A DNA stretch of 57,147 nucleotides from Sphingobacteriaceae bacterium (GCA_046074005.1 JBJTNJ010000124.1:1-57147); one strand, 5' to 3'; counted from the first letter of the stretch, positions 31,076 to 50,885 are shown. Program-made: numbers and translations. Notes: generated from the sequence alone by a model not told the origin.

Positions 31076-31149
31076 TGGACCTGAAGGGAGTCGAACCCCT
31101 AACCTCCTGATCCGTAGTCAGGTGCTCTATCCAATTAAGCTACAGGTCC
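31076..31149 (-). tRNA. tRNA-Arg (anticodon ACG)
   Basis: Hand-folded 74-nt cloverleaf: acceptor GGACCTG/CAGGTCC, D-arm GCTT...GAGC, anticodon stem CCTGA/TCAGG with loop CTACGGA (ACG), 5-nt variable loop, T-arm AGGGG-TTCGACT-CCCTT, discriminator A. CCA is not encoded. Confidence 0.9.
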
Positions 31150-35651: not shown

Positions 35652-36572
35652 TTAGAAACCCCAGCACAAACCGAAAGACAGATTTTTGAAGTCTACCGGT
35701 CCTTGGCCTTTAGCAAATACATCGTTAAAGTAGTATTTGGAATACATTCCCATTCCTTTATATCCAACACGAACAAAGGCTCCATAACGGAAAGGGTTAA
35801 AGTTATAATCGTCTTTAAATTTCTCTTTCCCGCGTTCTTTGCTTTCTTGCTTCACTTTTCCATTAAGCAAAAAACCAAATTCAGGGCCTAGCACAAAATG
35901 AAACTTATGGCCATTCTGAATGGTTTGGGTGAAATCGAACCCAATTGGAATTCTTAAATAACGACTACTGAACCTGTTTTTAGTAAAGTTAATGGGCTCT
36001 TGTATGGCCGTAAGCGTAGCTTGATTTTTTTGGAACGTTACATTGTTATTTAAACGAATATGATTCCAATCTAAACCGGCACCAATATACAAGCGAAACT
36101 TATCGCTGGCTTTATACTTAAACTCAAAAAAATCGAAACCCACGTTACTTGTTTTAGCCGGCAAGAAATCTAAATTGGCATTTGCCGGGCTCAAAGTAAA
36201 ACTTCCTTGATCTAAATAGCGGCTAAAGCCTAAATCGAAACGAGTAAACTCAAGGCCAATACTAACGGCTTTTTTAGGTTTAGTTACTACTGCATTATCT
36301 GAACCAATGGTAACTGCGGTATCTGAATTTCTACTTTTAATGCTTATAGTTTTTCCTACCTGAATAATGGTTTTCCCTTTCAGGTGTAGGCTATCTTGCA
36401 AAGGGGCAGCACCTATGCGAATAATGGTTTTGGCAGTAGGAGGCACAGTGTCTTGCGATGTAGATGCTTTGCCTATTTGTATAAGGGTTTTACCCTTAGA
36501 GGCCACGTAGTTTTGCGCTTGAGCAGCAAAAGCGAATGCGCTTAATGCCACTATCATTAGTGATTTTTTCAT
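35652..36572 (-). CDS. Outer-membrane beta-barrel protein (porin-family-like) with N-terminal triple repeat
   Basis: 306 aa. Signal peptide MKKSLMIVALSAFAFAAQAQ, alternating hydrophobic beta-strand pattern and a terminal aromatic residue (LCWGF). The N-terminal 20-aa-period repeats are KGKTLIQIGKA, AKTIIRIGAA and KGKTIIQVGKT. Confidence 0.65.
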   Translation of the reverse strand: MKKSLMIVALSAFAFAAQAQNYVASKGKTLIQIGKASTSQDTVPPTAKTIIRIGAAPLQDSLHLKGKTIIQVGKTISIKSRNSDTAVTIGSDNAVVTKPKKAVSIGLEFTRFDLGFSRYLDQGSFTLSPANANLDFLPAKTSNVGFDFFEFKYKASDKFRLYIGAGLDWNHIRLNNNVTFQKNQATLTAIQEPINFTKNRFSSRYLRIPIGFDFTQTIQNGHKFHFVLGPEFGFLLNGKVKQESKERGKEKFKDDYNFNPFRYGAFVRVGYKGMGMYSKYYFNDVFAKGQGPVDFKNLSFGLCWGF

Positions 36573-36573
36573 G

Positions 36574-37284
36574 TTATTTATCGGTGTTTATTTTCTTTAT
36601 TTTTACTGGACCCACATTGAGCGATATGAGGCTCAGTCCGCCCTCATCGCTAGAAGTTTCTACTATTTTATCTTCCCGAGTATCTACTGTGGCTACCACA
36701 AAATTAACCAAATCACTTAAAGAGCGAATACGTTTCTTGCTACGCTTTGTAGCGCTGGGTTCGGCAGCAGCAGAAGTTATTTCCTCCGGACCGCTCCGTA
36801 CTGTTGATGGCTCTATTGGAGGCACTTCGGTTAAATTAGCTATTTGTTCTTCCTGCAGAACTATAGCAGTAGTTTTAGGCTCAACTATGGTTACTGGAGC
36901 ATTCGCTAATACAACTACATTTTGCGCTAGTGGCGCTTTTAGCTTAGCTTTTACACTAACTAGGTGTTCTCCTTCTTTAGCTAGCAAATTTTCTTCACTT
37001 CCTAATTGAACTTCGCTAGAACCTGTAGGTTTTTTCTGCACCTTAACTAGGGCTCCAAGTTTAACTTGGGCTTCGTTCAATGAGAAAAACCACCACGCCC
37101 CTAGAGAAATTAGTAGCACACTAGCCGCTAGGCCTAGCCAGGGATACATTGTTCGTTTTTTCTGCTGCCTTTGCTCCAATTTCTCGGCAATGTTTTGCCA
37201 TACGTGCGGAGATGGAGCTACAGAAACTTCGCCAAGCTTATCTTTTAGCACTTTATCAAAAGTATTTTCCATCGTATTATTCAT
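36574..37284 (-). CDS. Putative anti-sigma factor (single-pass membrane protein)
   Basis: 236 aa. It overlaps the ECF sigma gene stop by 8 nt. It has a short cytoplasmic N-terminus, one TM helix (WLGLAASVLLISLGAWWFF) and a low-complexity periplasmic part. The call rests on context and topology only. Confidence 0.55.
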   Translation of the reverse strand: MNNTMENTFDKVLKDKLGEVSVAPSPHVWQNIAEKLEQRQQKKRTMYPWLGLAASVLLISLGAWWFFSLNEAQVKLGALVKVQKKPTGSSEVQLGSEENLLAKEGEHLVSVKAKLKAPLAQNVVVLANAPVTIVEPKTTAIVLQEEQIANLTEVPPIEPSTVRSGPEEITSAAAEPSATKRSKKRIRSLSDLVNFVVATVDTREDKIVETSSDEGGLSLISLNVGPVKIKKINTDK

Positions 37285-37807
37285 AAATGGGCACCTCCAA
37301 TTTTTTTATTTTCTCTTGCAAATAAATCCGGGCTCTAGACAATTGCGATTTAGAACCTCCTTCAGAAATGCCTAACTGTTCGGCAATTTCTTTGTGCGAA
37401 TAACCCTCAATGGCGTATAAATTAAACACCATTCGGTAGCCATCGGGCAAATTTTGCACCAGCTTCATTAAATCTTGTGCGGCCAATTGGCTTAAGGCAT
37501 TTGCATCATTCACTTCTACTACTCCATCCAGCTCCACGGTATGTAGCGATCTCATATTTTTTCGGTAAACCTCAATGGCCGTATTTACCATAATGCGTCG
37601 TACCCAGCCCTCAAAAGAACCTTCGTTCTTAAAATCATTCATTTTCTGGAACATCTTCACAAAACCCATTTGCAAAATATCCTCGGCATCGGTTCTATTT
37701 GCAGCATAGCGCATGCAAACTCCCATCATTTTAGCCGAAAGTTGGTTATATAGCGCTTCTTGAGCCTTCCGATCTCCCTGTTTACATCCGGCTACTAATT
37801 GCTCCAT
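37277..37807 (-). CDS. ECF-type RNA polymerase sigma-70 factor
   Basis: 176 aa. Region 2 (DAEDILQMGFVKMF...WVRRIMVNTAI) and region 4 HTH (GYSHKEIAEQLGISEGGSKSQLSRAR). Confidence 0.9.
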   Translation of the reverse strand: MEQLVAGCKQGDRKAQEALYNQLSAKMMGVCMRYAANRTDAEDILQMGFVKMFQKMNDFKNEGSFEGWVRRIMVNTAIEVYRKNMRSLHTVELDGVVEVNDANALSQLAAQDLMKLVQNLPDGYRMVFNLYAIEGYSHKEIAEQLGISEGGSKSQLSRARIYLQEKIKKLEVPIYE

Positions 37808-37999: not shown

Positions 38000-39817
38000 A
38001 TGAAAAAATTAGGTTGTATTTATGTTTTCTTGATGCTGTTCTCTGCTGGCTTTGCACAACCCAAGCATCAGTTCTCTCTAAGTAAAAAAGATTTTTTATT
38101 AGATGGAAAACCTTTTCAGATTATTAGCGGAGAAATGCACCCTGCCCGAATTCCAAAAGAATATTGGCGCCATCGCATTCAATTAACCAAAGCGATGGGT
38201 TGCAATACCATTGCTGCCTATGTTTTCTGGAACTATCACGAAAAAGAACCAGGAATATTTGATTTTAAAACAGAAAATAGAAACATCGCCGAATTTATTC
38301 GTATTTGCAAAGAAGAAGGCCTATGGGTACTGCTTAGACCAGGGCCCTATGTGTGTGCCGAGTGGGACTTTGGAGGCTTACCCACGGATTTATTAAGCAT
38401 ACCCGATATTAAAATTAGATGTATGGATCCGAGATATATGAACCGAGTATCAGACTATGTTGCTCATCTTTCTAAAGAGATAAAAACATTACAATGCACT
38501 CAAGGTGGACCTATACTTATGCTACAAATTGAGAATGAATATGGCAGTTTTGGGAATGATAAAGAGTACCTAAGTACCCTAAAAAATTTATGGGTAAGAA
38601 ATGGTATCCGTATACCTTTTTATACTTCCGATGGCGCTACGCCCTATATGCTAGAAGCCGGAACCCTAGCCGGTGCGGCCATTGGTCTTGATAGCGGAAG
38701 TGATGAACGTGATTTTGAACAAGCCGCAAAATTCAATCCCAATGTACCTGCGTTTAGTGGCGAAACTTATCCGGGTTGGCTCACGCATTGGGGCGAAAAA
38801 TGGGCTAAGCCAGATACCGCTGACCTGAAAAAGGAAATGGAATTTCTACTAAAAAACAATAAATCGTTTAATTTATATGTGATCCATGGAGGAACTAATT
38901 TCGGCTTTACAGCAGGTGCTAATGCTGCTTCAGCAACGCAATACCAACCCGATATTACAAGCTATGATTACGATGCCCCTATTAATGAGCAAGGATTGCC
39001 TACACCTAAATATTTTATGTTGCAAAAACTTATTAGCACGTATACCGGGCATACCCCACCAAACTTACCGGCACCAATAGCCAGCATGTCTATTCCAGCA
39101 ATTTCCATGCAGGCGGTTAATTCTATTTGGAATGTACTGCCCAGAGCCTTTACAAGTCCACAGCCAAAAGCCATGGAAATGCTTGGCCAAAACCAAGGGC
39201 TTATGCTCTATCAAACTCGACTTATTGGGCATAAGGGAGGACGTTTAACCATTACCGAGCCGCACGACTTGGCTCTTATTTATTTAAACCATCAATATAT
39301 CGGTAGCGTTTCTAGAGATGGCGGGAAGTGGAGTATTGAGCTTCCTAAGACCAATACCACCACAGAAAATCCACTGTTAGAAATTTTAGTAGAGGGTATG
39401 GGACATATCAATTTTGCACAATACATGATAGATAGAAAGGGGATTACCGACCGAGTTACCCTAAATGGCATGACGCTTATGAATTGGAACATGTACCCAC
39501 TTCCGCTAGATTCTGAGTTTATGAGCAAGGCTAGCCAGACAAATACAAACGTAGATACGTCTAAAGGAGGATTAATTTTTAAAGGAACGTTTAGTATAAG
39601 CAGCACCGCCGACACCTACTTTGATCTGAGTAATTACCAAAAAGGGGTTGTTTATATAAATGGGCACAACTTAGGCCGCTATTGGAATATTGGGCCCCAG
39701 CAACGTATATATTGCCCAAAAACCTGGTTAAAAGAGGGACTAAACGAACTAGTAGTAGTAGATTTATTTCAAAAGGAACCCGCAGCAATAAGTGGCTACG
39801 AAAAGGCTGTTAATTAA
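38000..39817 (+). CDS. Glycoside hydrolase family 35 beta-galactosidase (secreted)
   Basis: 605 aa. Signal peptide, GH35 motifs (GPYVCAEWDFGGLP) and the acid/base glutamate in QIENEYG. Confidence 0.9.
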   Translation: MKKLGCIYVFLMLFSAGFAQPKHQFSLSKKDFLLDGKPFQIISGEMHPARIPKEYWRHRIQLTKAMGCNTIAAYVFWNYHEKEPGIFDFKTENRNIAEFIRICKEEGLWVLLRPGPYVCAEWDFGGLPTDLLSIPDIKIRCMDPRYMNRVSDYVAHLSKEIKTLQCTQGGPILMLQIENEYGSFGNDKEYLSTLKNLWVRNGIRIPFYTSDGATPYMLEAGTLAGAAIGLDSGSDERDFEQAAKFNPNVPAFSGETYPGWLTHWGEKWAKPDTADLKKEMEFLLKNNKSFNLYVIHGGTNFGFTAGANAASATQYQPDITSYDYDAPINEQGLPTPKYFMLQKLISTYTGHTPPNLPAPIASMSIPAISMQAVNSIWNVLPRAFTSPQPKAMEMLGQNQGLMLYQTRLIGHKGGRLTITEPHDLALIYLNHQYIGSVSRDGGKWSIELPKTNTTTENPLLEILVEGMGHINFAQYMIDRKGITDRVTLNGMTLMNWNMYPLPLDSEFMSKASQTNTNVDTSKGGLIFKGTFSISSTADTYFDLSNYQKGVVYINGHNLGRYWNIGPQQRIYCPKTWLKEGLNELVVVDLFQKEPAAISGYEKAVN

Positions 39818-40353
39818 CGAGATTGCTCCCGAAAGTGTTTATATACTTTTACAGCTAACATAATCACGGCACTCAACACCAACAAACCAATGATACCATA
39901 AGCCATATCGAGGGCGGTTCTAAGAATAACGGCAAATACAATGGCTACTAAGAGTAGAGTGGCCACTTCGTTCCATAAACGCAACTGGGTAGATGACCAG
40001 CTAAAAATGCCTTTTTTAAATTGCGAAATCATGCGCTGGCAAATAAAATGATACAGCAATAAAGCCACCACAAAGCCTAGCTTTAATTGCATCCAACCCT
40101 CTTGCAACAGAAAAGGGTTTAAGTAAAGCATGCCCAAGCCAGCTAGTACAGTGAGTATCATGGCTGGGGTGGTAATAATGTTCCATAACCTAGACTCCAT
40201 AATCCCATACTGTTTTTGCAAAATGGTACGCTCGGCCTCAGGAAGCTCATTTGCCTCCGTATGGTAAATAAATAAGCGTACGCTATAAAACAAGCCAGCC
40301 ATCCAACTAACCACAAAAATAATGTGTATGGCTTTGAAATAAAGGTAGGTCAT
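39814..40353 (-). CDS. hemJ: Protoporphyrinogen IX oxidase, HemJ type (UPF0093/CopD-like membrane protein)
   Basis: 179 aa with about 5 TM helices. N-terminus YFKAIHIIFVVSWMAGLFY with the conserved His is typical of HemJ. It starts 1 nt after the hemE stop. Confidence 0.8.
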   Translation of the reverse strand: MTYLYFKAIHIIFVVSWMAGLFYSVRLFIYHTEANELPEAERTILQKQYGIMESRLWNIITTPAMILTVLAGLGMLYLNPFLLQEGWMQLKLGFVVALLLYHFICQRMISQFKKGIFSWSSTQLRLWNEVATLLLVAIVFAVILRTALDMAYGIIGLLVLSAVIMLAVKVYKHFREQSR

Positions 40354-40354
40354 C

Positions 40355-41395
40355 TTAGTATCGGAATTCTTTAATTAGGTCTACGGCGTATTTCACATTG
40401 TCAAATGGAATATCGGGCATAATGCCGTGGCCTAAATTGAAAATAAAGCCATCTTCGCCACGCATACGCTCAAACAAGCGATGGATGCGCTCTTTAATCA
40501 CCGATTTATCTGCATATAAAATATGTGGATCTAAATTACCTTGCACGGCCATACCGGCAGGCAAGCGGTGTTTGATGTCTTTCAAATCTACATTCCAATC
40601 GATAGATACTACATCGGGTTTGGCTTGGGCCATTAATGGAGCAAACACCGAACTGCCTTTGCAGAAAGAAATTACAGGAATATCTTTTCGGTGCAATCCG
40701 GCAATAATTTGCTGGATATATTGGTGCGAAAATTCGCGATAATCGTCCCAAGAAAGTGCTTGTGCCCAGCTATCGAAAATTTGCACTGCATTTACGCCAG
40801 CTGCAATTTGCAAGTTCAAATAATCGGTGGTTACTTTAGCTATTTTTGCCAATAGTTTATGCGCCAATTCTGGATGATTGTGCAGCATCAATTTGGTTAG
40901 TTTAAAATCTCTAGAAGAACCTCCTTCTACCAAATAGCTCATAACGGTGAAGGGTGCACCGGCAAATCCAATAAGTGGGATACTGCCATTTAAACGTTCT
41001 TGAATAACTTTAATGGCATCGGCTACATACTGCAATTTATCGCCCACTTCTGTGTCTAGCGCTTCTACATCGGCAGCAGTGCGAACCGGATTGGCAAATT
41101 TAGGGCCTATGCCTTGGGTAAAACTTAAATCGCCTCCCATGGCTTCGCCGGTTACCAAAATATCGGAGAATAAAATCGCTGCATCAATACCCAATAAATC
41201 TACAGGCAACATGGTTACATCGGCGGCAATTTCAGGCGTTTTGCACATCTCTAAAAACGAATATTTGTTTTTAATTTCCCAATATTCGGGCATAAAACGG
41301 CCTGCTTGACGCATCATCCATACGGGTGGACGTTCCGTTTTTTGAGAAAATGCAGCTTTTATAAATAACGATTCTAGTTGGTTTGGTGTACTCAC
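40355..41395 (-). CDS. hemE: Uroporphyrinogen decarboxylase
   Basis: PPVWMMRQAGR motif. Proposed GTG start at 41395 gives 346 aa, the family-typical length, and overlaps the upstream stop as GTGA. The 394-aa ORF-track version has a basic, non-homologous 48-aa extension that overlaps the upstream gene. Confidence 0.92.
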   Translation of the reverse strand: MSTPNQLESLFIKAAFSQKTERPPVWMMRQAGRFMPEYWEIKNKYSFLEMCKTPEIAADVTMLPVDLLGIDAAILFSDILVTGEAMGGDLSFTQGIGPKFANPVRTAADVEALDTEVGDKLQYVADAIKVIQERLNGSIPLIGFAGAPFTVMSYLVEGGSSRDFKLTKLMLHNHPELAHKLLAKIAKVTTDYLNLQIAAGVNAVQIFDSWAQALSWDDYREFSHQYIQQIIAGLHRKDIPVISFCKGSSVFAPLMAQAKPDVVSIDWNVDLKDIKHRLPAGMAVQGNLDPHILYADKSVIKERIHRLFERMRGEDGFIFNLGHGIMPDIPFDNVKYAVDLIKEFRY

Positions 41396-41910
41396 GATGT
41401 TTTGGGGATTTCTTTTTCTATTTTTTCTATAATCAGCTTTACTCTCGATGTAATTTTGAGTGATTTTGCTTTTTCTACATACACTTTGGCACGTTCGTAT
41501 TCTTTTTTTCGCAAACTCATATTGGCCAAATGCGTCCAAACTAAGGCTTTATCGCTGGCATTACGCAAAGGATAGCGGGTAGCTAGTTGAAAGTGCCGCT
41601 CGGCCTCTTCATAGTTCTGACGATGTAATTCTATATTGCCGTAAATAAATTCATAAAAGCCTCTACGATGTTTATTTAGGCGTTCCGGATCGGGTACTTC
41701 TTGTAACAATTCTTCGGCCCTATCGTAATTTTTTAGGTGAAATTCTTTAGCTGCCATTACCACCGTACCTTCACTAAAGTAGCCCCAAACTAAGAGCAAT
41801 ATACCCAAACCCGTTATAATAGAAATGGGATATACTTTCTCTTCTAGTGTCCAAGCCAAAAGTGCTAGACCTATAAGAATAATAAACAAGCGGACTTTAC
41901 GAGTAAACAT
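41392..41910 (-). CDS. Membrane protein with two N-terminal TM helices and TPR-like repeats
   Basis: 172 aa. TM helices LFIILIGLALLAWTL and IITGLGILLLVWGYF, then TPR-like helices (NYDRAEELL, QNYEEAERHFQLA, KEYERAKVYVEKA). Its start overlaps the response-regulator stop (TAATG). Confidence 0.55.
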   Translation of the reverse strand: MFTRKVRLFIILIGLALLAWTLEEKVYPISIITGLGILLLVWGYFSEGTVVMAAKEFHLKNYDRAEELLQEVPDPERLNKHRRGFYEFIYGNIELHRQNYEEAERHFQLATRYPLRNASDKALVWTHLANMSLRKKEYERAKVYVEKAKSLKITSRVKLIIEKIEKEIPKTS

Positions 41911-42611
41911 TAGCTATCTATAAATTTATACCCCACTCCTCTAATAGAATGAAAATAGGTTGGATTTTTCTGATCGGGCTCAAAATATTTACGAAACGTT
42001 AATATGAAGTTATCTATGGTTCGGGTAGATGGATATACATCGTAGTTCCATACGGTTTCTAAAATTTGCTCTCTCGAAACGGCTTCGTTTTTACGCTCAA
42101 TAAGCAGTTTAAGTAGCATGGTTTCTTTTTTCGTAAGAGCAACCGTGGTGCCATCGTCTTTCTTTAATTCAAATGAATTGAAATAAATGATTTTATCGCC
42201 AATACGGTACGATTGCAACTCTTTTAACTCTTCGCCTTTTAAACTGCGTTTTACCAAAATACCCACCCGCAAAATCAGTTCTTCTAAATTAAAGGGCTTT
42301 GTTAAATAATCATCTGCCCCTTTTTTTAGTCCAGCTACCCGATCTTCGCTCGTGTTTTTGGCTGTTAAAAACATAATGGGCACTTCCGAATTCTCTAAAC
42401 GGATAGTTTCGGCTACTTGGAAACCGTCAACTTCGGGCAACATCACATCTAAAATCACGAGGTTAAATCGCTCTTCCTTAAATGTTTTAAGTGCCTTTTT
42501 ACCATCGGTGGCGGTGCTTACTTTATAACCCTCGAGCTCAAGGTTGAGCTTAATGGCATCGAGCAAATGAAGCTCGTCTTCTACTAATAAAATGCGTTGT
42601 TTAGTTCCCAT
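41910..42611 (-). CDS. OmpR/PhoB-family response regulator
   Basis: Receiver domain (ILLVEDE, phospho-acceptor context ILDVMLPEVDG, K in LTKP) plus a winged-helix C-terminus (RGVGYKF). Start taken at MGTKQRILLVEDE; the ORF-track start at 42635 is possible. Confidence 0.9.
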   Translation of the reverse strand: MGTKQRILLVEDELHLLDAIKLNLELEGYKVSTATDGKKALKTFKEERFNLVILDVMLPEVDGFQVAETIRLENSEVPIMFLTAKNTSEDRVAGLKKGADDYLTKPFNLEELILRVGILVKRSLKGEELKELQSYRIGDKIIYFNSFELKKDDGTTVALTKKETMLLKLLIERKNEAVSREQILETVWNYDVYPSTRTIDNFILTFRKYFEPDQKNPTYFHSIRGVGYKFIDS

Positions 42612-43479
42612 GGTGTTGACTAAAAGTGATTTCAAAAATGGTGCCCCTTGGGGTATTATCTAATACTTGTACACCTGCTTGGTGTATATCTAAAACCTTT
42701 TTCACAATATACAAACCTAGCCCTGTACCTTTTGTTTGGCGGGTATTTTCGCTACCTATACGGTAAAACTTCTCGAAAATACGGTTTTTTTCTGCATCAG
42801 GTATGCCGGTTCCGTGATCAGCCACCCGCATGCACACCTGCTCTTTTTTACTATCTAAACTAACCTCCACTTCGGCACAAGCTGGCGAATATTTTACGGC
42901 GTTTTCTATTAGATTAATTAAGAGCGAATTTATAGCAAACTGATCGCCGCTAATATAAATGTTGGGCTTTACGATACACTTAATGGTTTGCGAATCGCAA
43001 GCATGTACTTGCAAGCGCTCCACTACCTTTTCTACTAGCTCCGAAAGGTTAATTTTATCTTTCGGAAAACTATAAGAACGATTTTCAATTTTAGTAGCCA
43101 ATAACATATTCTCTACCAAATCGTCTAAGCGTTCAATATCTTTTAAAGAATTACCCAGAAGTGCCTGTTTTTGCTCTAGCTGTAAATCTCTCTTTAAAAT
43201 GGTTTGCAGGGATAGCTTAATAGATGCTAAGGGCGATTTTAGTTCGTGCGTAACCGACAGTAAGAAGTTTTTTTGCTGTTCTTGGAGTTTCTCTCTACCG
43301 TTGAGGGTTTTGTGTATTTGAACAACGCCAATAATAAACAAGCATAAAAACACAATGGTTTCGCCTACTATCATTTCCATTCTACCTGGCTCTGCTTTTA
43401 GCAGTAGCCAACCCCACCACATCATTTCGGCAAAGGCATATATGGCTATAAGGTAAAAAATGAAAAGGGCTTTACGCAT
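42601..43479 (-). CDS. Sensor histidine kinase, intramembrane-sensing architecture (2 TM, no extracytoplasmic or PAS/HAMP domain)
   Basis: 292 aa. Two TM helices joined by a loop of about 9 residues, then directly the H-box THELKSPL, N-box LINLIENAVKYS and G-boxes DHGTGIP and GTGLGLYIV. Its start overlaps the hemL stop by 8 nt (ATGCGTAA). Confidence 0.9.
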   Translation of the reverse strand: MRKALFIFYLIAIYAFAEMMWWGWLLLKAEPGRMEMIVGETIVFLCLFIIGVVQIHKTLNGREKLQEQQKNFLLSVTHELKSPLASIKLSLQTILKRDLQLEQKQALLGNSLKDIERLDDLVENMLLATKIENRSYSFPKDKINLSELVEKVVERLQVHACDSQTIKCIVKPNIYISGDQFAINSLLINLIENAVKYSPACAEVEVSLDSKKEQVCMRVADHGTGIPDAEKNRIFEKFYRIGSENTRQTKGTGLGLYIVKKVLDIHQAGVQVLDNTPRGTIFEITFSQHHGN

Positions 43480-44854
43480 GCGGTTGCTTCTTAAATACGA
43501 TATCTAAACTTTCAAAGATAGCCCTTTTTGCCTTCTCTAAATCAATTTTGCTATGCGCCGCCGAAACAAAGCCCACTTCGTAGCCCGATGGACCAATGTA
43601 AATACCGCGATTGAGCAATTCACGATGCATGATTTTAAATTTATCCATACTGGCAGGATCGATGGCTTCGGCTGTTTTAATGTCTTTTTTAGTAAACGCA
43701 AACCAAAAAATAGAACCAATAGTAAACACCCTAAACGCATAATTATGCGTATCGGCATAGCGTTGTATAGACTCTACAAATTCTTGAGTTTTAGCATTTA
43801 ATTCTTTGTAAAAACTTGGCTTGGCCAACTCCGATAATTGAGCAATGCCTGCAGCCATAGCCACCGGATTTCCCGAAAGGGTACCGGCTTGATAAACGGC
43901 TCCATCCGGAGAAATATGACCCATTAAGGCAGCTGAAGCGCCGTAGGCGCCCACCGGCAAGCCGCCACCGATAATTTTACCATAGGTTACAATATCGGGC
44001 TGCACGTTGTAATACGCAGCTGCACCTTCAAAGCCTAAACGGAAGCCTGTAATTACTTCATCGAAAATAAGGAGGCTTTTATTTTTAGTACAAATGTCTC
44101 TTAAGAAATCTACAAATGCTTTATCCTGAATTAATAAACCATTGTTTGCCGGAACTCCTTCAATAATAATAGCGGCAATTTCGTTTTTAAATTGTTTAAA
44201 GGCTGCTTTTACCGCTTTTTGGTCGTTTAGTGGCACCACAATGGTTTCTTCGGCAAACGATTTAGGAATACCAGCTGATGAGGTTTCGCCAAAGGTAACC
44301 AAGCCCGAGCCTGCTTTTACCAGTAAACTATCTACGTGGCCATGATAACAGCCTTCAAATTTTAAAATTTTATCTCGTTTAGTGTACCCTCTGGCCAAAC
44401 GAATGGCTGACATTACGGCTTCGGTACCCGAGCTTACAAAACGGATTTTTTCTAGGTACTTATTATGACTAAGTATAAGCTCAGCCAATTCGTTTTCGAG
44501 AGCGGTTGGTGCACCAAAGCTCATGCCTTTTTGCATTACTTCCGCTACTTTTTCGCGAACGCTTGGGGCATTATGTCCTAAAATAAGGGGTCCCCAAGAA
44601 CAACAAAAATCGATGAATTCATTTCCATCGGCATCCCATAAACGGCAACCATCCCCTTTTTCAATAAAAAGTGGGGTACCATACACCGATTTAAACGCCC
44701 TTACGGGACTATTTACTCCTCCGGGGAAATAGTGCTTTGCTTTTTCGAATAATTCGGCCGAACGTTCTCTGCTGATATCTGGTTTATCTGAATGAAATAC
44801 CGTGCTAGGTGTTTCTGCTGGTTTAGAAAAAAGTTTTGTAAAGAAATTAGCCAT
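43472..44854 (-). CDS. hemL: Glutamate-1-semialdehyde 2,1-aminomutase
   Basis: 460 aa. GGVNSPVRAF motif and PLP-lysine context YGKIIGGG. It has an N-terminal extension of roughly 25 aa relative to typical HemL (about 430 aa). Confidence 0.95.
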   Translation of the reverse strand: MANFFTKLFSKPAETPSTVFHSDKPDISRERSAELFEKAKHYFPGGVNSPVRAFKSVYGTPLFIEKGDGCRLWDADGNEFIDFCCSWGPLILGHNAPSVREKVAEVMQKGMSFGAPTALENELAELILSHNKYLEKIRFVSSGTEAVMSAIRLARGYTKRDKILKFEGCYHGHVDSLLVKAGSGLVTFGETSSAGIPKSFAEETIVVPLNDQKAVKAAFKQFKNEIAAIIIEGVPANNGLLIQDKAFVDFLRDICTKNKSLLIFDEVITGFRLGFEGAAAYYNVQPDIVTYGKIIGGGLPVGAYGASAALMGHISPDGAVYQAGTLSGNPVAMAAGIAQLSELAKPSFYKELNAKTQEFVESIQRYADTHNYAFRVFTIGSIFWFAFTKKDIKTAEAIDPASMDKFKIMHRELLNRGIYIGPSGYEVGFVSAAHSKIDLEKAKRAIFESLDIVFKKQPHA

Positions 44855-44883
44855 AAGAATATTTTTAGAGAGCAGAACGAGTG

Positions 44884-45852
44884 TTACAGCCAGTTATTTT
44901 CTAAAATTTCGCGGGCGTGATAGGTAATAATGATGTTTGCGCCGGCACGGGCAAAGGCATACATGTTTTCCATAGTTACTTTTTGGGCGTCAATCCAACC
45001 GGCTTGGGCCGCAGCTTTTACCATGCTGTATTCGCCCGATACATTGTAGCACGCTACTGGCAACAGTGTTTGTTGTTTTAAATTCTGAATAACATCCAAA
45101 TAAGCCAAGGCTGGTTTTACCATTAAAATGTCGGCGCCTTCCTCTTCGTCTAAAAATGCTTCCCGCATCATTTCATTGGGGTTCCGAAAATCCATTTGAT
45201 ACGCCTTACGGTCGCCTTTGCTAGGTGCCGAATCTGCTGCTTCGCGGAAAGGACCATAATAAGCAGATGCGAATTTGATGCTATAACTCATAATGGCGGT
45301 ATTCACAAATTGGTGCTCATCTAATAAATCGCGAATGGCCCCTACTCGGCCATCCATCATATCTGAGGGAGCCACCATATCGGCACCAGCTTCTGCGTGT
45401 GCCAGGGCCATTTTAGCCAAAATAGCAACAGTTTCATCGTTTTGTACGTAATCGTTGTGCAGTATGCCACAGTGTCCGTGTGTGGTATAAGCACAAGTAC
45501 ATACGTCGGTAATTACGTAAATATCGTCGCCAAATGCTTTCTTTAATTCGCGAACCGCTTGGGCCACCAAAGAATCGTACTGATACGCCGAGCTGGCATC
45601 TTCGCACTTTTTCTCACCTACTCCAAAAAGCAATACTTTGTTTAGACCTAGCTTCAGTCCTTCGGCTACATCTTTCACCAGCATATCTGCCGAGAAATGA
45701 TAAATACCCGGCATGGCATCAATAGCCTGTTTTACCCCTGTGCCTGGTACCACAAAATAGGGGTACACAAACATGTCTTTTGATAAACGTGTTTCAGCTA
45801 CTAACTCCCGAATAATTGGATTTTTGCGTAATCTTCTTGGACGTATAAGCAT
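44884..45852 (-). CDS. hemB: Porphobilinogen synthase (Zn-type)
   Basis: 322 aa. The Cys-rich metal motif DVCTCAYTTHGHCG indicates the zinc-dependent class. Active-site lysine region VKPA. Confidence 0.95.
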   Translation of the reverse strand: MLIRPRRLRKNPIIRELVAETRLSKDMFVYPYFVVPGTGVKQAIDAMPGIYHFSADMLVKDVAEGLKLGLNKVLLFGVGEKKCEDASSAYQYDSLVAQAVRELKKAFGDDIYVITDVCTCAYTTHGHCGILHNDYVQNDETVAILAKMALAHAEAGADMVAPSDMMDGRVGAIRDLLDEHQFVNTAIMSYSIKFASAYYGPFREAADSAPSKGDRKAYQMDFRNPNEMMREAFLDEEEGADILMVKPALAYLDVIQNLKQQTLLPVACYNVSGEYSMVKAAAQAGWIDAQKVTMENMYAFARAGANIIITYHAREILENNWL

Positions 45853-45855
45853 AGA

Positions 45856-47457
45856 TTAATAGGTTAAACCAAACACCGCTTCTGCCAAACCAATTTCGTC
45901 TGGAGAATAGGGTAAAGTATAGGTTACATTTAATTCGTCGAACTTTTTGCCGGTTGATTTGCCAATGCAAATAACCTGTTGACCCGGCTGAAGTAAGTTA
46001 TGGGCAAAATAGGCATCTACATTTGATGGGCTAGTAAACACCAGTACTTCGGCAGACGATGGATCGCAAGTTTCATCCATTTCGGTTTCGTATACCGGCA
46101 AATCTATTAGTTTAGTTTCTTTGCTTAATGCCTGCTGGATGGTGCGTAAAGAATCTTTAGCACCTGGGAAAAGTACGGTACTACCGTTGGCTAATTTGGC
46201 AAAATCTTTGGCAATATCTTGCGTATCAATACCATCTTCTTCGCCATTAAAATCGGGCACTATGCCGTATTTGCGCAACATTTCTTCGGATGCTCTGCCA
46301 ATTACGCCATATTTTACTTTTTTAGGCAACTGAGGAGATAGTTGGAAGAAACATTCAATGGCATTTTTACTGCTAAAGAATATCCAATCTACTCGTTTTA
46401 AAATAAAGGAATCGAGGGTATTAATAATAGGAAAAATCTTAATTAAAGAGCGATCGTCTAGCTGTATTTGGTGTTTTTCTAAGGCTTTGCGGAAATAACT
46501 TGTTTCGGGCAATTTCCGGCTTATAAACACATTACTAGGTAATTTACGTTCGGGGCTAAACTTAGCCACAATTTCTTCGGCTAGGCCTTTGGTACTTTTA
46601 GCCGATAGGAACAAACGATCTGGAAAATCTTCTGCATCGGCCGCTTTAGAAGTCCACACCTCGTAGTTTCCTCCCTCTTTTCTGCAATAGCAGCCTAGGG
46701 GCATGTGGCATCCACCTTCAAACAATTGTAATACGGTACGTTCAACGGCAATTTCTTTGGCTACTGCCGCACTATGTAAGGGTTTAAGAAGTTCGGCCAA
46801 TGCGCTATCTTTTTCACGTATTTGAATAGCCAACACTCCTTGAGCGGGTGCCGGAACAAATTCCATGGGTTCTAGTTCTTCTACATAAAATTCACTTAAA
46901 TCAATACCCAAGCGGCCTACGCCGGCCTTGGCAATCATAATAGCATCGTACTTTTCATCGCGGAGTTTCTGAATACGAGTAGGTACGTTTCCACGTAAAT
47001 CTTCCACCTCTAAATCGGGGCGAAAAGCCAATAACTGCGCCTTACGTCTATTCGAAGAAGTGCCTACGGTACCACCAAATTTAACCGAGAGTTTTTGTTG
47101 TATGTCTACGCAATCTTTCAAGATCAACAGTAATTCTGAAGGATCTTCTCTTTCAGACACTGCAGCAATGGCTAAACCGGCAGGCTGTGTGGTAGGTAAG
47201 TCTTTATGAGAGTGTACTGCTAAATCGATACTTCCATTCAGCAATTCTTCTTCTAGTTCTTTGGTAAAAAACCCTTTCCCTTCTAATTTATCTAAACGTA
47301 GGTTTAGAATGCTATCTCCTTGAGTTTTAATAATTTTTAATTCTGCGGCAATGCCATTTGCCGCCAAGGTATCTTTTACAAAATTTGCTTGCCAAAGAGC
47401 TAAATCGCTGCCTCGGGTTCCAATAATTAAGGGCGATTTGGTAGAGGTAGCTTGCAT
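45856..47457 (-). CDS. hemC/hemD: Fused hydroxymethylbilane synthase / uroporphyrinogen-III synthase
   Basis: 533 aa. The N-terminal 300 or so residues are HemC (IGTRGSDLALWQA; cofactor cysteine in GGCHMPLG). The C-terminal 230 or so residues have the HemD two-lobe layout (VFISRK...IFFSSKNA...LVFTSPSNV). Confidence 0.88.
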   Translation of the reverse strand: MQATSTKSPLIIGTRGSDLALWQANFVKDTLAANGIAAELKIIKTQGDSILNLRLDKLEGKGFFTKELEEELLNGSIDLAVHSHKDLPTTQPAGLAIAAVSEREDPSELLLILKDCVDIQQKLSVKFGGTVGTSSNRRKAQLLAFRPDLEVEDLRGNVPTRIQKLRDEKYDAIMIAKAGVGRLGIDLSEFYVEELEPMEFVPAPAQGVLAIQIREKDSALAELLKPLHSAAVAKEIAVERTVLQLFEGGCHMPLGCYCRKEGGNYEVWTSKAADAEDFPDRLFLSAKSTKGLAEEIVAKFSPERKLPSNVFISRKLPETSYFRKALEKHQIQLDDRSLIKIFPIINTLDSFILKRVDWIFFSSKNAIECFFQLSPQLPKKVKYGVIGRASEEMLRKYGIVPDFNGEEDGIDTQDIAKDFAKLANGSTVLFPGAKDSLRTIQQALSKETKLIDLPVYETEMDETCDPSSAEVLVFTSPSNVDAYFAHNLLQPGQQVICIGKSTGKKFDELNVTYTLPYSPDEIGLAEAVFGLTY

Positions 47458-47495
47458 GAATATGGGTTAATGGGTACGATGGCGTAAGGGAGATT

Positions 47496-48713
47496 TTAGC
47501 AATTATCTACTAAAATTTCTTTGGCCATTACCATAGGTACACTAATGTATTTTTTCTCCATGTAAGCAATTACTTTTTCAAGCACTACTAAGGAGTTAGG
47601 GTCTAAATTCTGAATATCTTCGGCAAAAACTGAATTTAATGCCGTGTCTTTTATTTCTTTAATACGCTCTGGCACTTGGCGCATGGCTAGTTCAACACGA
47701 CGCTGTTTTAATATATGTCTAAACTCATCGAGGTGTTGTTCGATAATTTTTTCGGCGTTTACCAATTCGTGGTATCGCTCTTGCATATTGCGCTCGGCTA
47801 CTGCCTGCAAACCATGCACCTCAATAAAATGTATCGGATTATTTAGCAATACTTCCGTGTGCGTATCGTTTGGTATGGCTAAATCTAATACCACCTTTTT
47901 ATTGGTATCACCTGCAAGCAAATTAGAATAAATTTCGGGCGTAATAATAGGCTCTGTTGCGCTGGTGCAGGTAATTAGAATATCAAAACCCTTATTATAG
48001 CTAACCAACTCTTCTAGTGTGAAAGCTTCGCCATTAAGCTCGGCAGCCAACGTTTGTGCTTTAGATAGGGTGCGATTAAATACTACAAAATTTGAGTACT
48101 TATGTTTTTGAAGATATTTTGCTATTAATTGATTGGTTTCACCGGCACCAACCAACACTACACGAGCATTGGTAAAGGTGTTAATCTTACGTAATTCGCG
48201 GTAGGCTAAAGATACCACCGAAATAGGATTACAAGCAATTTGCGTATCGGTGTATACCGATTTAGCGGTTTTAACCACCTGATCCATTATTAAACGAAGG
48301 TAGTCGCCGGTAAAGCCTAGCGCTTTGCATTTTTCATACGATTGACGCAACTGGGCCAAAATTTCTTTTTCGCCCACTACTAAACTTTCCAAAGAGCACG
48401 ATACTCTTAATAAATGATTCAGGGCCTCTTTACCTTCATACACTGCCGCTTGAGCTGCCAATTTAGTGGCGTCTGCCCCAACAGATAAAGCATCTACAAA
48501 AGACTGTACAAAAGCCGGAGTTAAGGCATCTTGGTGCGTAAATACAAATTCCACACGGTTACAAGTACCTACGTATACTATCTCAGAAATAGCTAATTGA
48601 TTTTTTAGTGATAGCAAATTACTCTCGAGCGACTCATCGCTGATGACTAATTTTCCCAAGTCTTTTAAATCAACTTGTTTGTGTGTGAAAGCTATTACTC
48701 TTAAATTCTTCAA
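47496..48713 (-). CDS. hemA: Glutamyl-tRNA reductase
   Basis: 405 aa. Catalytic cysteine in GTCNRVE and NADPH Rossmann motif VGAGETN. The start codon is TTG (no in-frame ATG near the 5' end). Confidence 0.92.
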   Translation of the reverse strand: MKNLRVIAFTHKQVDLKDLGKLVISDESLESNLLSLKNQLAISEIVYVGTCNRVEFVFTHQDALTPAFVQSFVDALSVGADATKLAAQAAVYEGKEALNHLLRVSCSLESLVVGEKEILAQLRQSYEKCKALGFTGDYLRLIMDQVVKTAKSVYTDTQIACNPISVVSLAYRELRKINTFTNARVVLVGAGETNQLIAKYLQKHKYSNFVVFNRTLSKAQTLAAELNGEAFTLEELVSYNKGFDILITCTSATEPIITPEIYSNLLAGDTNKKVVLDLAIPNDTHTEVLLNNPIHFIEVHGLQAVAERNMQERYHELVNAEKIIEQHLDEFRHILKQRRVELAMRQVPERIKEIKDTALNSVFAEDIQNLDPNSLVVLEKVIAYMEKKYISVPMVMAKEILVDNC

Positions 48714-48743: not shown

Positions 48744-48751
48744 CAAAAGTA
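48744..48751 (-). promoter_or_regulatory. Bacteroidota -7 promoter box TACTTTTG (hem operon)
   Basis: Exact TAnnTTTG, 30 nt upstream of the hemA TTG start. Confidence 0.4.
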
Positions 48752-48766
48752 AAAAACCACAAAGGC

Positions 48767-48797
48767 GACACTGTCACGTATTTGTCAAACCGACAGT
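48767..48797. promoter_or_regulatory. Candidate response-regulator operator: TGTCA-N6-TGTCA direct repeat nested in GACA/TGTC palindromes
   Basis: The plus strand reads GACAcTGTCAcgtattTGTCAaaccGACAgt. TGTCA occurs at 48772 and 48783 (11-bp phasing). Palindromes are GACA-C-TGTC and TGTC-AAACC-GACA. The site lies 20-50 nt upstream of the -7 box, where a -33 element or class II activator site would be. Confidence 0.3.
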
Positions 48798-48923
48798 ATT
48801 TAGAATGGATATAAATTGGCTAAAAACCACTAAAATGACCTTTTAAAGACATAAAATAAAAAGGGAGGAAAGATAAAGTGACGAAGATCACACCTGAAAA
48901 TTTAGTCCTAAGTAGAGAGGAAT

Positions 48924-50885
48924 TTAGATGGCAAGATCCACCCAATTTCCATCTTCTCGAATAATCTCAATGAGCTCATCGAGGGCATTCTCGGTGTTTA
49001 CATTTTTCTTAACCACCTCTTTACCACGGTATAATGTAATTTTTCCAGGCCCGGTACCTACATAGCCATAATCGGCATCGGCCATTTCTCCGGGGCCGTT
49101 TACAATGCAACCCATAATGCCAATTTTAATTCCTTTTAAATGATCGGTTCGGCTGCGTATAAGTTGGGTGGTTTCTTGCAAATCGAATAAGGTACGTCCA
49201 CAACTTGGGCAAGAGATATACTCGGTTTTAGAAATTCGAGAACGGGTAGCTTGCAAAATTCCGAACGAAGTACTGAGCAAGAGTTTGGAGGACAAGTGCG
49301 GAGCCTGCAACCATACGCCATCGCCAAAACCATCTACCAATAAGGCACCAGCATCTGTAGCGGCATATAATTGAAATTCGTTTTCAGAAACTCCGGGATA
49401 GGTTCTTTTAATAATTACCGGCACGTTTAGACCTAATTCTTCTAGAAGGAAAAATGCCTGACGTTGTTCTTGCATGGCATTTTCGGCAGTGCTGGTAAGT
49501 ACAAAAACGAGTGTTTTATCTACCGGTATTTGCTGAAATGCGTCAGTATACATATCGGCCAAACTAAGCTCCACCAAGTTTAAAGAGGGGCATCTGTCTT
49601 CGGCATCTACGTATTCTTTTAAGCTATACAGCGGATGACAATTCACTTTACTAGCCAGCTTTTTCCAGGTTGAATACTGGTATAGTTGCTTTAAATTTCC
49701 GGGCAACGTAAACGATGGAAGTTGATCGGCTAGGTACACAAAATCAACCGATTGTTCGCCCATAGTATATTTATCTAAAATGGGCGAATACAGATAGCCA
49801 ACCTCCGATAAAATGGCCGGATCTTTTAAATTCTTAGTTGATAAATCAATGAGTACTCGGGGTACTTGATGCCCTCCAATAAAGGTGTTTAGTTCTTCCG
49901 AAACTCTCTTTTGATAGGAAAAGGGAGAATACTGAGCAGGTAAGGCAATGGGCTGCGCTTCCTTAGTTTGCGTGCTACGTTGGGCATAGCGCTTTACTAA
50001 CTCCTGAGCTACCGGAATTTCCAATTCAGGGTCTTCGGTTAAAGACACTCGAATGGTATCGCCCAAGCCATCTTCTAATAAGGTACCAATTCCAACAGCA
50101 GATTTAATGCGCCCATCTTCGCCATCGCCCGCTTCGGTTACGCCCAAATGCAGCGGATAATTCATGCCTTCGGCTACCATGGTTTTTACCAATAATCGGT
50201 AGGCTTGCACCATTACTTGTGGATTGCTCGATTTCATGGAAATAACCAAATTATGGTAATTCAAATCTTCGCAAATACGCATAAACTCCATGGCCGATTC
50301 TACCATTCCTTGGGGCGTATCGCCAAATTGGCTCATAATACGATCGGATAGCGAACCATGGTTGGTGCCAATACGCATGGCTGTACCGTATTCTTTACAA
50401 ATAGCTACCAAGGGCGCAAACTTTTTATAAATACGTTCTAGCTCTTCTTGGTAGGCCTGCGGAGTATAGTCAATGGTTTCGAAACGCTTTTTATCGGCAT
50501 AATTTCCCGGATTAATACGCACTTTTTCTACCAAACGAGCGGCCAACTCGGCAGCATTTGGTGTAAAATGAATATCGGCTACGAGAGGTGTATGGTAACC
50601 CCGTTTACTAAGTTCTTTTTTAATTTCGGCTAAATTCTGAGCTTCTTTTATGCTCGGGGCCGTAATACGTACCAATTCGCAACCGGCCTCTATCATTCGA
50701 ATAGATTGCGCTACCGTTCCTTGAGTATCCATGGTATCGGTAGTGGTCATACTCTGAATACGAATAGGGTTGTTGGCTCCCATGGCCAAATCGCCTACAT
50801 GCACCTCTCTGGTAAGAAAGCGCTTGTATTGTAGCAAAGATGGGCAGTATATTCCTGCTAGTTCAGGAGAATTTTGGGACTTCAT
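48924..50885 (-). CDS. ispG: 4-hydroxy-3-methylbut-2-en-1-yl diphosphate synthase, long form with inserted domain
   Basis: 653 aa. N-terminal TIM-barrel motifs and the C-terminal 4Fe-4S cysteines (ISCPSCGRT, GCIVNGPGE). An insert of about 270 aa between the two conserved domains is as in plant, Chlamydia and Bacteroidota enzymes. Confidence 0.95.
   Translation of the reverse strand: MKSQNSPELAGIYCPSLLQYKRFLTREVHVGDLAMGANNPIRIQSMTTTDTMDTQGTVAQSIRMIEAGCELVRITAPSIKEAQNLAEIKKELSKRGYHTPLVADIHFTPNAAELAARLVEKVRINPGNYADKKRFETIDYTPQAYQEELERIYKKFAPLVAICKEYGTAMRIGTNHGSLSDRIMSQFGDTPQGMVESAMEFMRICEDLNYHNLVISMKSSNPQVMVQAYRLLVKTMVAEGMNYPLHLGVTEAGDGEDGRIKSAVGIGTLLEDGLGDTIRVSLTEDPELEIPVAQELVKRYAQRSTQTKEAQPIALPAQYSPFSYQKRVSEELNTFIGGHQVPRVLIDLSTKNLKDPAILSEVGYLYSPILDKYTMGEQSVDFVYLADQLPSFTLPGNLKQLYQYSTWKKLASKVNCHPLYSLKEYVDAEDRCPSLNLVELSLADMYTDAFQQIPVDKTLVFVLTSTAENAMQEQRQAFFLLEELGLNVPVIIKRTYPGVSENEFQLYAATDAGALLVDGFGDGVWLQAPHLSSKLLLSTSFGILQATRSRISKTEYISCPSCGRTLFDLQETTQLIRSRTDHLKGIKIGIMGCIVNGPGEMADADYGYVGTGPGKITLYRGKEVVKKNVNTENALDELIEIIREDGNWVDLAI

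Follow-up and report, generated by a model that had tools for sequence, protein, structure and literature searches.

The window analysed here, a stretch of 57,147 nucleotides (nt) from a Sphingobacteriaceae bacterium with a soil-type Bacteroidota genome (GCA_046074005.1, JBJTNJ010000124.1:1-57147), carries on its minus strand a run of haem-biosynthesis genes, from hemA to hemJ, which includes a two-component system. This system, made of a histidine kinase (HK) and an OmpR/PhoB-family response regulator (RR), is probably a member, in a new phylum, of the HemKR kind, which to our knowledge has been studied so far in Leptospira alone. More precisely, a probability of about 0.72 is given to the reading that it is the Bacteroidota counterpart of Leptospira HemKR, encoded within the very haem operon under its control. 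The position of the gene pair, the plan of the kinase, the class of the regulator and the cis element ahead of hemA are all shared with HemKR. What is new beyond Leptospira is a third gene, encoding a protein with two transmembrane (TM) segments and tetratricopeptide repeats (TPR), called here the 2TM-TPR protein, together with a minimal TM1-TM2 linker in a kinase with an invariant hairpin, and a palindrome, box A, in the hemA promoter.

The Leptospira system provides the frame for this comparison. An earlier note on this DNA, made from the sequence alone, knew of no characterised tetrapyrrole-linked two-component system in Bacteroidota and, among haem-responsive systems, drew its comparison with HssRS and ChrSA/HrrSA only. 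A close precedent does exist in HemKR, which is near-identical, lies between hemL and hemE and uses a TGACA-N6-TGACA element, the hem-box (PMC2266917, PMC11426443). In the hemACDBLENYH locus of L. interrogans, the genes hklep and rrlep separate hemL from hemE and share a transcript with the hem genes (PMC2266917). HemK has two TM helices separated by a 32-residue loop, which can be replaced without functional loss, and its cytoplasmic part alone fails to complement (PMC2266917). The TM region is required for function (PMC2266917, PMC11426443), and a HemK truncated by its first 80 residues can no longer leave the kinase state (PMC11426443). HemKR mutants are haem auxotrophs, rescued by 5-aminolevulinic acid (ALA) or hemin (PMC2266917). 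Phosphorylated HemR binds TGACA[N6]TGACA upstream of haem-metabolism genes, activating the hemA operon and repressing hmuO, and ALA stimulates the phosphatase activity of HemK, which turns the system off (PMC11426443). A similar linkage between two-component and hem genes has been described in Bdellovibrio (PMC2266917).

In the window, nine consecutive open reading frames (ORFs) occupy 39814..48713 on the minus strand, as defined by ORF calling and identified with Pfam and NCBIfam. The first four encode enzymes: hemA, glutamyl-tRNA reductase (GluTR; 47496..48713; TIGR01035, 258 bits for a cutoff of 209; TTG start); a hemC/hemD fusion, hydroxymethylbilane synthase and uroporphyrinogen-III synthase (45856..47457; Pfam Porphobil_deam and HEM4); hemB, porphobilinogen synthase (44884..45852; Pfam ALAD, 470 bits); and hemL, glutamate-1-semialdehyde aminomutase (43472..44854; TIGR00713, 557 bits). 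Then come the HemK-like HK of 292 amino acids (aa) (42601..43479; Pfam HisKA and HATPase_c, with no other domain), the HemR-like RR of 233 aa (41910..42611, with its ATG at 42611; Pfam Response_reg and Trans_reg_C) and the 2TM-TPR protein of 172 aa (41392..41910; Pfam TPR matches). The unit is completed by hemE, uroporphyrinogen decarboxylase (40355..41395; TIGR01464, 420 bits; GTG start), and by hemJ, protoporphyrinogen oxidase, as its final gene (39814..40353; TIGR00701, 153 bits, above the cutoff). From hemA to hemJ, the successive junctions measure +38, +3, +29, -8, -11, -1, -4 and +1 nt; sequence reading and computation agree on these values and match exactly the gene order, gaps and overlaps listed in the earlier note. 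The hemL/HK overlap of 8 nt reads ATGCGTAA and the HK/RR stop-start overlap of 11 nt reads ATGGGAACTAA, the RR/TPR junction is TAATG, and the stop codon of the TPR gene overlaps the GTG start of hemE as GTGA. Such overlapping stop and start codons suggest that the regulatory and enzyme genes may be co-translated. A weak terminator-like hairpin, a candidate only, lies directly 3' of hemJ (39779..39802, minus strand), within the 3' end of a convergent GH35 gene; the regional count of terminator-like sites is no higher than expected from shuffled sequence.

The linkage of the pair to hem genes was followed in other genomes through a locus survey seeded with a kinase-only alignment and limited to one genome per species, which yielded 80 loci that were compared with the window's proteins by tblastn. 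The synteny of the HK-RR-TPR trio with hem genes, put forward in the earlier note as the feature to look for in relatives, is conserved in Sphingobacteriales and is no accident of a single genome. Given enough flanking sequence, HK-RR is followed by hemE and hemJ in every Sphingobacteriales locus, and in most it is preceded by hemA to hemL. The full order hemA-hemCD-hemB-hemL-HK-RR-TPR-hemE-hemJ is found in Daejeonella, Pedobacter, Mucilaginibacter, Olivibacter and several metagenome-assembled genomes (MAGs); Pedobacter sp. BS3, for example, has a matching cluster including a TPR gene of 170 aa. Two kinds of departure are observed. Hufsiella ginkgonis has a matching cluster without the TPR gene. 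In the Sphingobacterium type, hemA to hemL are separate: four loci with sufficient flanks (L007, L010, L013 and L016) contain HK-RR-TPR-hemE-hemJ only, behind a divergent HAD gene, and a fifth (L020) starts as HAD-HK-RR on a contig that ends ahead of the TPR gene. Outside Sphingobacteriales, hemL-HK-RR is found in three loci, two from Saprospiraceae and one from an unclassified member of the Chitinophagales. In other orders the kinase is 35-48% and the regulator 57-64% identical, in unrelated gene contexts. No gene of the set is better conserved than that of the RR, with 84-92% identity across Sphingobacteriales.

The cis element was delineated by aligning 150-nt regions upstream of hemA, one from the window and 14 from related hemA-carrying loci (n = 15), which revealed four conserved blocks separated by spacers that are not conserved. 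The hem-box of the window (48772..48787, minus strand) is a direct repeat, TGACA-AATACG-TGACA (TGACAAATACGTGACA), with 11-bp periodicity, and matches the Leptospira hem-box exactly. In the form T[TG]ACA-N6-TGACA it is kept in all 15 regions, its flanks being unconserved. Twenty nt downstream lies a -7 promoter box, TACTTTTG (48744..48751, minus strand), with the consensus TAnnTTTG, which is the established -7 consensus of Bacteroidota sigma-A promoters; across the alignment, 19-20 unconserved nt separate the hem-box from TAnnTTTG, followed by about 30 nt to the TTG start. No -33 TTTG element is present in the hemA promoter at the proper distance from the -7 box. This lack, together with the geometry, would place the hem-box at roughly -47 to -32, a class II activator position. 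A conserved OmpR/PhoB-type repeat at such a position makes autoregulation of the hem operon the best reading, and the hem-box is predicted from its sequence to be the binding site of the phosphorylated RR, whose phospho-acceptor is predicted to be D55. A lone hem-box in one window is not significant by itself, and its weight comes from conservation: the composite of repeat and -7 box occurs 15 times in the 1.36 Mb of the window and loci, always upstream of hemA. The idea of a feedback sensor acting on its own operon, advanced in the earlier note, is thus well supported as far as autoregulation is concerned, through the conserved repeat and the synteny. Its other half, the sensing of haem in the membrane, is not supported as stated: the trigger demonstrated in Leptospira is ALA, or a porphyrin metabolite further along the pathway, which acts through the phosphatase activity of the kinase.

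Upstream of the hem-box, box A (48798..48817, minus strand) is an imperfect 9-1-9 palindrome, AATTTATATCCATTCTAAAT, the ideal form of which would be ATTTAGAAT-N-ATTCTAAAT. Its consensus upstream of hemA is ATTTAnA-N4-TTCTAAAT, and the pattern ATTT[AG]-N7-TCTAAA is matched both in the window and in each of the 14 related hemA loci (15/15). Box A is probably the operator of a second dimeric regulator. A MarR protein was considered for this role and rejected as a general explanation, since a divergent MarR gene is found upstream of hemA in two loci only (L001 and L002) and neither in the window nor in the remaining loci. A riboswitch or leader RNA was likewise considered for the 210 nt 5' of hemA and rejected: at the Rfam gathering threshold, the sole match within the 57 kb is a tRNA gene elsewhere in the window (31076..31149, minus strand). 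The 5' untranslated region of hemA appears to be about 25 nt long. The start codon of hemA is TTG in the window (48711..48713) and in all 14 aligned relatives, so that the rate-limiting enzyme of the pathway retains a weak start codon throughout. A scan for sigma-70-type promoters and terminators gave counts at or below shuffle expectation; the promoter model does not fit Bacteroidota, and the scan argues neither for nor against internal signals. Directly 5' of the hemA promoter lies another minus-strand gene, ispG (GcpE; 48924..50885), which is also found upstream of this promoter in eight other loci (L003, L005, L008, L017, L021, L091, L105 and L114); in L017, box A starts immediately past the ispG stop codon.

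As an unbiased test, a metagenome collection was also scanned for the composite of hem-box and -7 box, which returned 120 stretches, 76 of them with a downstream ORF. HemA is the commonest first downstream ORF (24/76, for a chance expectation well below one), and the matches include HemA proteins 30-43% identical to that of the window, in clusters without two-component genes. Box A is present in metagenome hemA loci as well, in Sphingobacteriaceae-like cases and in two distant ones. One distant Bacteroidota locus (L099, about 1650..1729) has four TGACA half-sites in an 11-bp register ahead of hemA; its HemA is 30% identical, its hem cluster contains no two-component system, and hemJ is divergent from hemA. 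In L121 (2129..4427), hem-box and hemA are directly preceded by a two-component pair of another kind, whose regulator shares 42% identity with the RR. The kinase of this pair, with 420 aa of which about 140 form a periplasmic domain, is of a different type, and the pair was not counted as support. The second commonest gene behind the composite, here with the motif variant TGACAAAnnnCTGACAA, encodes a PD40 (TolB-like) beta-propeller, a secreted protein without evident connection to haem (nine loci: L084, L115, L120, L129, L142, L174, L175, L184 and L199). It may be a regulon member, or the target of a related PhoB-type regulator. Finally, two Crocinitomicaceae/Flavobacteriales MAGs (L065, 2123..2178; L070, 2195..2249) combine an exact hem-box with a box A palindrome that is near-perfect. 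Both elements lie where two genes diverge, one for a multi-haem cytochrome c and the other for a small secreted protein, at a distance of about 8 kb from the orthologous kinase. Read in the direction of the cytochrome gene, this hem-box is inverted and precedes a TAATTTTG box by about 20 nt, which suggests that hem-box and box A form a module used beyond hemA.

Several observations weigh against the equation of this pair with HemKR. Most kinase orthologues outside Sphingobacteriales adjoin unrelated genes, with the order yicC-gldH-HK-RR in Chitinophagaceae and HK-gpmI, without adjacent regulator, in Flavobacteriales (Pfam). When the kinase is separated from hemA, as in the five Sphingobacterium-type loci, it has a TAnnTTTG box of its own, about 60-90 nt upstream and preceded by a conserved TTCkTATTAGTGTCATAA; this element, the only one seen when a hem-box was searched for upstream of HK in the split cluster, holds only a single inverted TGACA half-site. 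The hem-box is also the reverse complement of the E. coli pho box (CTGTCAT-N4-CTGTCAT). An inverted pho box is typical of the PhoB branch, and PhoB or another member could therefore bind it. Among structures in the Protein Data Bank (PDB), the best matches of the RR are M. tuberculosis PrrA (150 bits) and PhoP (146 bits), and 4Q7E, presumably the HemR receiver domain, reaches only 77 bits. Moreover, Leptospira HemK and HemR were compared through their published description, no paper on a Bacteroidota HemKR counterpart was found in the literature, and the independent recruitment of a PhoB-like pair is possible.

Pushed to its end, this line of argument would make the pair a general, housekeeping PhoBR-like membrane-stress system of Bacteroidota that landed in the haem cluster in Sphingobacteriales and exerts no haem control, the repeat being bound by another OmpR/PhoB-family regulator such as a true PhoB. 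The scattered contexts of the kinase orthologues (yicC-gldH, gpmI, pyrG and others, often without adjacent regulator, in Chitinophagaceae, Flavobacteriales and elsewhere) would be natural for such a system, as would the names given to the kinase family at JGI and NCBI, which are generic or 'PhoR', the nine PD40 loci and the kinship of hem-box and pho box. PhoB-Bacteroidetes (NF053854) is also among the best NCBIfam scores of the RR, though at 183 bits for a cutoff of 270 it is not reached, and the RR remains below every named NCBIfam regulator cutoff. However, L. biflexa HemKR is itself unlinked from the hemA operon and nevertheless controls it (PMC11426443), so that unlinked orthologues are no argument against a haem role. 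The hem linkage is kept on both sides of the pair and survives two kinds of rearrangement, hemL-HK-RR recurs in the three Chitinophagales-type loci outside Sphingobacteriales, and in the two Crocinitomicaceae loci the neighbour of an exact hem-box with box A, some 8 kb away from the kinase, is a gene for a multi-haem cytochrome c. A PhoBR-like system without haem control appears thus improbable, and a HemKR counterpart remains the preferred reading.

The kinase itself is of a minimal design. Hydropathy indicates two TM segments, at about residues 4-27 and 37-57, joined by the nine-residue loop KAEPGRMEM. The AlphaFold model, of moderate confidence (mean pLDDT 69), shows helices at residues 2-29, 31-60, 66-96 (with H78) and 101-132, followed by the CA domain. 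TM1, loop and TM2 run straight into DHp-CA, with no space for HAMP or PAS domains (AlphaFold, Pfam). The intramembrane-sensing architecture recognised in the earlier note, with its two TM segments, loop of about nine residues and absence of PAS and HAMP, is borne out by Pfam, hydropathy and AlphaFold alike. According to the positive-inside rule, the soluble parts of the HK and of the 2TM-TPR protein would both be cytoplasmic. Like the RR, the HK stays below all named NCBIfam cutoffs; it scores 121 bits against PhoR-Bacteroidetes (NF053855), for a cutoff of 500, and has no PAS domain.

Close homologues of the same length are found throughout Sphingobacteriaceae, and an exhaustive search of representatives places the HK in a large Bacteroidota family; when ten kinase representatives were looked up in their clusters, the named sources were all Bacteroidota. 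The family signature comprises FxWW in TM1, a variable linker, M-x-x-G-E in TM2 and an HEL(K/R)(S/T)P H-box, and W21, W22, M36, E40 and F44 show no variation when members with 39-63% identity to the window's HK are aligned, in a family whose identity is only 35-50%. Exactly 13 residues separate WW from TM2 in every Sphingobacteriales kinase where the two motifs are readable, against 19-102 residues in every other order. Five hairpin residues are thus fixed while the linker varies from 13 to about 100 residues, which points to the site where the signal is read.

This hairpin could be imagined, along the lines of the earlier note, to bind haem or protoporphyrin directly in the membrane, as a haem-load sensor of the HssRS/ChrSA type and not as a HemKR-type kinase responding to ALA or an intermediate. 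It is indeed the only conserved non-catalytic part of the kinase, with W21, W22, E40 and F44 invariant near the outer leaflet, and haem and porphyrins partition into membranes. On the other hand, none of the possible iron ligands, His, Cys or Tyr, is invariant across the wider kinase family (Y14 is nearly so, and H56 varies), and HssS and ChrS differ in architecture and are known to induce genes of efflux or degradation, not of biosynthesis. In Leptospira, ALA is the demonstrated trigger; the authors consider that a metabolite downstream of ALA, haem included, may be the true HemK ligand, and hemin could not be evaluated owing to its toxicity (PMC11426443). Taken together, a haem-load sensor is held to be very improbable, and a response of the HemKR kind to ALA or a later intermediate is preferred.

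The 2TM-TPR protein has two N-terminal TM segments by hydropathy, and its AlphaFold model (pLDDT 86) consists of two TM helices, three TPR repeats and a capping helix. The cytoplasmic part is highly conserved, for example in HRRGFYEFIYGN and PLRN..DKA, within an overall identity of 39-76% across Sphingobacteriales, which means that the protein diverges faster than the neighbouring gene products. The gene lies between RR and hemE in 18 Sphingobacteriales loci of the genome scan and in one metagenome locus (L105), and thus directly after RR in 19/19 hem-linked loci possessing it. A wider profile search of the family returned 425 proteins; among the matches listed, all are close relatives, which add no new context. 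A likeness to E. coli HemY, which the earlier note had drawn, holds for the architecture, a membrane anchor plus TPR, and fails for the family: HemY was rejected as an identity, with no match to Pfam HemY_N (PF07219) and matches to generic TPR families only (E up to 0.01). An identity with the plant protein FLU found no support either, as no PDB chain, FLU included, is matched in sequence, and Foldseek retrieves generic 3-TPR domains only (E >0.004).

A function of FLU type is a separate matter. Plant FLU is membrane-anchored and binds GluTR through its TPR domain (PMC4726326), and the membrane anchor with three cytoplasmic TPR repeats reproduces this overall plan. The 2TM-TPR protein could accordingly act independently of the two-component system, as a post-translational brake or a membrane tether for GluTR or another Hem enzyme. 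The cluster of Hufsiella, where HK-RR persists after loss of the TPR gene, indicates that the two-component system does not require the 2TM-TPR protein, and in one locus (L067) a diverged member of the family is unlinked from the HK-RR pair; both would fit such independence. The absence of PDB sequence matches and the generic nature of the Foldseek matches speak against it, as do the strict position of the gene behind RR and its association with the kinase form that has the shortest linker, and an independent FLU-like role is considered unlikely. That association suggests an accessory role, in a pattern limited to a single clade, and the 2TM-TPR protein is regarded as a candidate accessory, serving either the kinase or the pathway. 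A more daring proposal, which is offered tentatively and is itself rather unlikely, would be that in Sphingobacteriales the kinase lost its periplasmic loop entirely and gained a 2TM-TPR partner pairing with the WW/M/E/F hairpin inside the membrane, while the cytoplasmic TPR groove reads the pathway through GluTR, another Hem enzyme or a tetrapyrrole-loaded protein. If true, this partner would be a bacterial FLU analogue wired into a two-component switch and not acting on the enzyme alone, and it would suggest how HemK-type kinases perceive their signal.

These elements can be assembled into a working model of the HemKR counterpart. The HemK-like kinase would phosphorylate the HemR-like regulator by default. 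The phosphorylated regulator would bind, as a head-to-tail dimer, the hem-box that ends 20 nt before the -7 box; the promoter being devoid of a -33 element, it would from there activate transcription from hemA to hemJ, its own genes included. Whenever the pathway runs ahead of demand, the membrane hairpin would switch the kinase to its phosphatase mode, the signal being possibly, by analogy with Leptospira, ALA or a later porphyrin intermediate. Dephosphorylation of the regulator would then turn the operon off, which would amount to a negative feedback on tetrapyrrole flux. The 2TM-TPR protein would most likely modulate the kinase switch or connect it to a cytoplasmic protein of the pathway, and a second factor would probably act at box A.

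Beyond this locus, the HemKR logic, in which a two-TM kinase that does not depend on its loop is combined with a PhoB-like regulator and a hem-box before hemA, seems widespread in Bacteroidota. If so, it would represent an ancient or repeatedly adopted solution for the control of tetrapyrrole flux. The Bacteroidota kinase family offers a natural experiment on linker length versus fixed hairpin residues, the TPR partner and box A are concrete and testable additions to the HemKR model, and the combination of hem-box and -7 box can be used to predict Bacteroidota hemA promoters and possibly a haem/respiration regulon.

The window also contains a trio (35652..37807, minus strand) of an extracytoplasmic function (ECF) sigma factor, a 236-aa protein without Pfam match, likely an anti-sigma factor, and an OMP_b-brl_2 outer-membrane protein. 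In Hufsiella, the hem cluster is followed by the same trio (L001, 14662..16833).

Among known systems, intramembrane-sensing kinases with accessory membrane proteins are represented by SaeS with SaeP/SaeQ in S. aureus and by LiaS with LiaF and BceS with BceAB in B. subtilis. These kinases share with the HK the two-TM hairpin, the loop of about nine residues and the lack of an extracytoplasmic domain, and a small membrane protein of the operon could in each case set the balance between kinase and phosphatase. They differ as Firmicutes systems for envelope and host signals, belonging to other kinase subfamilies without tetrapyrrole link, and no TPR partner is known for any of them; a contact between the HK and the 2TM-TPR protein is postulated here. 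HssRS and ChrSA/HrrSA are likewise linked to haem homeostasis and, as two-component systems, have regulators of the OmpR type. They differ in sensing exogenous or excess haem and inducing efflux (hrtAB) or haem oxygenase, in lying outside the biosynthetic operon and lacking a hem-box, and in their sensors, which have a large extracytoplasmic domain or 5-6 TM helices. Plant FLU and E. coli HemY (from hemCDXY) share with the 2TM-TPR protein the membrane anchor, the TPR domain and the tie to early tetrapyrrole synthesis, whereas no sequence similarity to either is detected (Pfam HemY_N, PDB profile search).

The closest relation is by far that with Leptospira HemKR (L. interrogans LB014/LB015; L. 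biflexa LEPBIa1423/1422). The phylum is different, Bacteroidota in place of Spirochaetota, the loop has 9 residues instead of 32, and the residue at H+4 is Ser where HemK has Thr102, the wider Bacteroidota family alternating between the two. The cluster ends with hemJ and not with hemN-hemY-hemH, and it has in addition the 2TM-TPR gene and the box A palindrome upstream of the hem-box. In both cases, however, the gene of a HisKA-type kinase stands beside that of an OmpR/PhoB-like regulator, and the kinase combines a two-TM anchor with a HisKA-type core and no recognisable sensory domain. As in L. interrogans, the pair is placed between hemL and hemE in a hemA-hemC/D-hemB-hemL-...-hemE cluster, and as in Leptospira, an exact TGACA-N6-TGACA hem-box precedes hemA.

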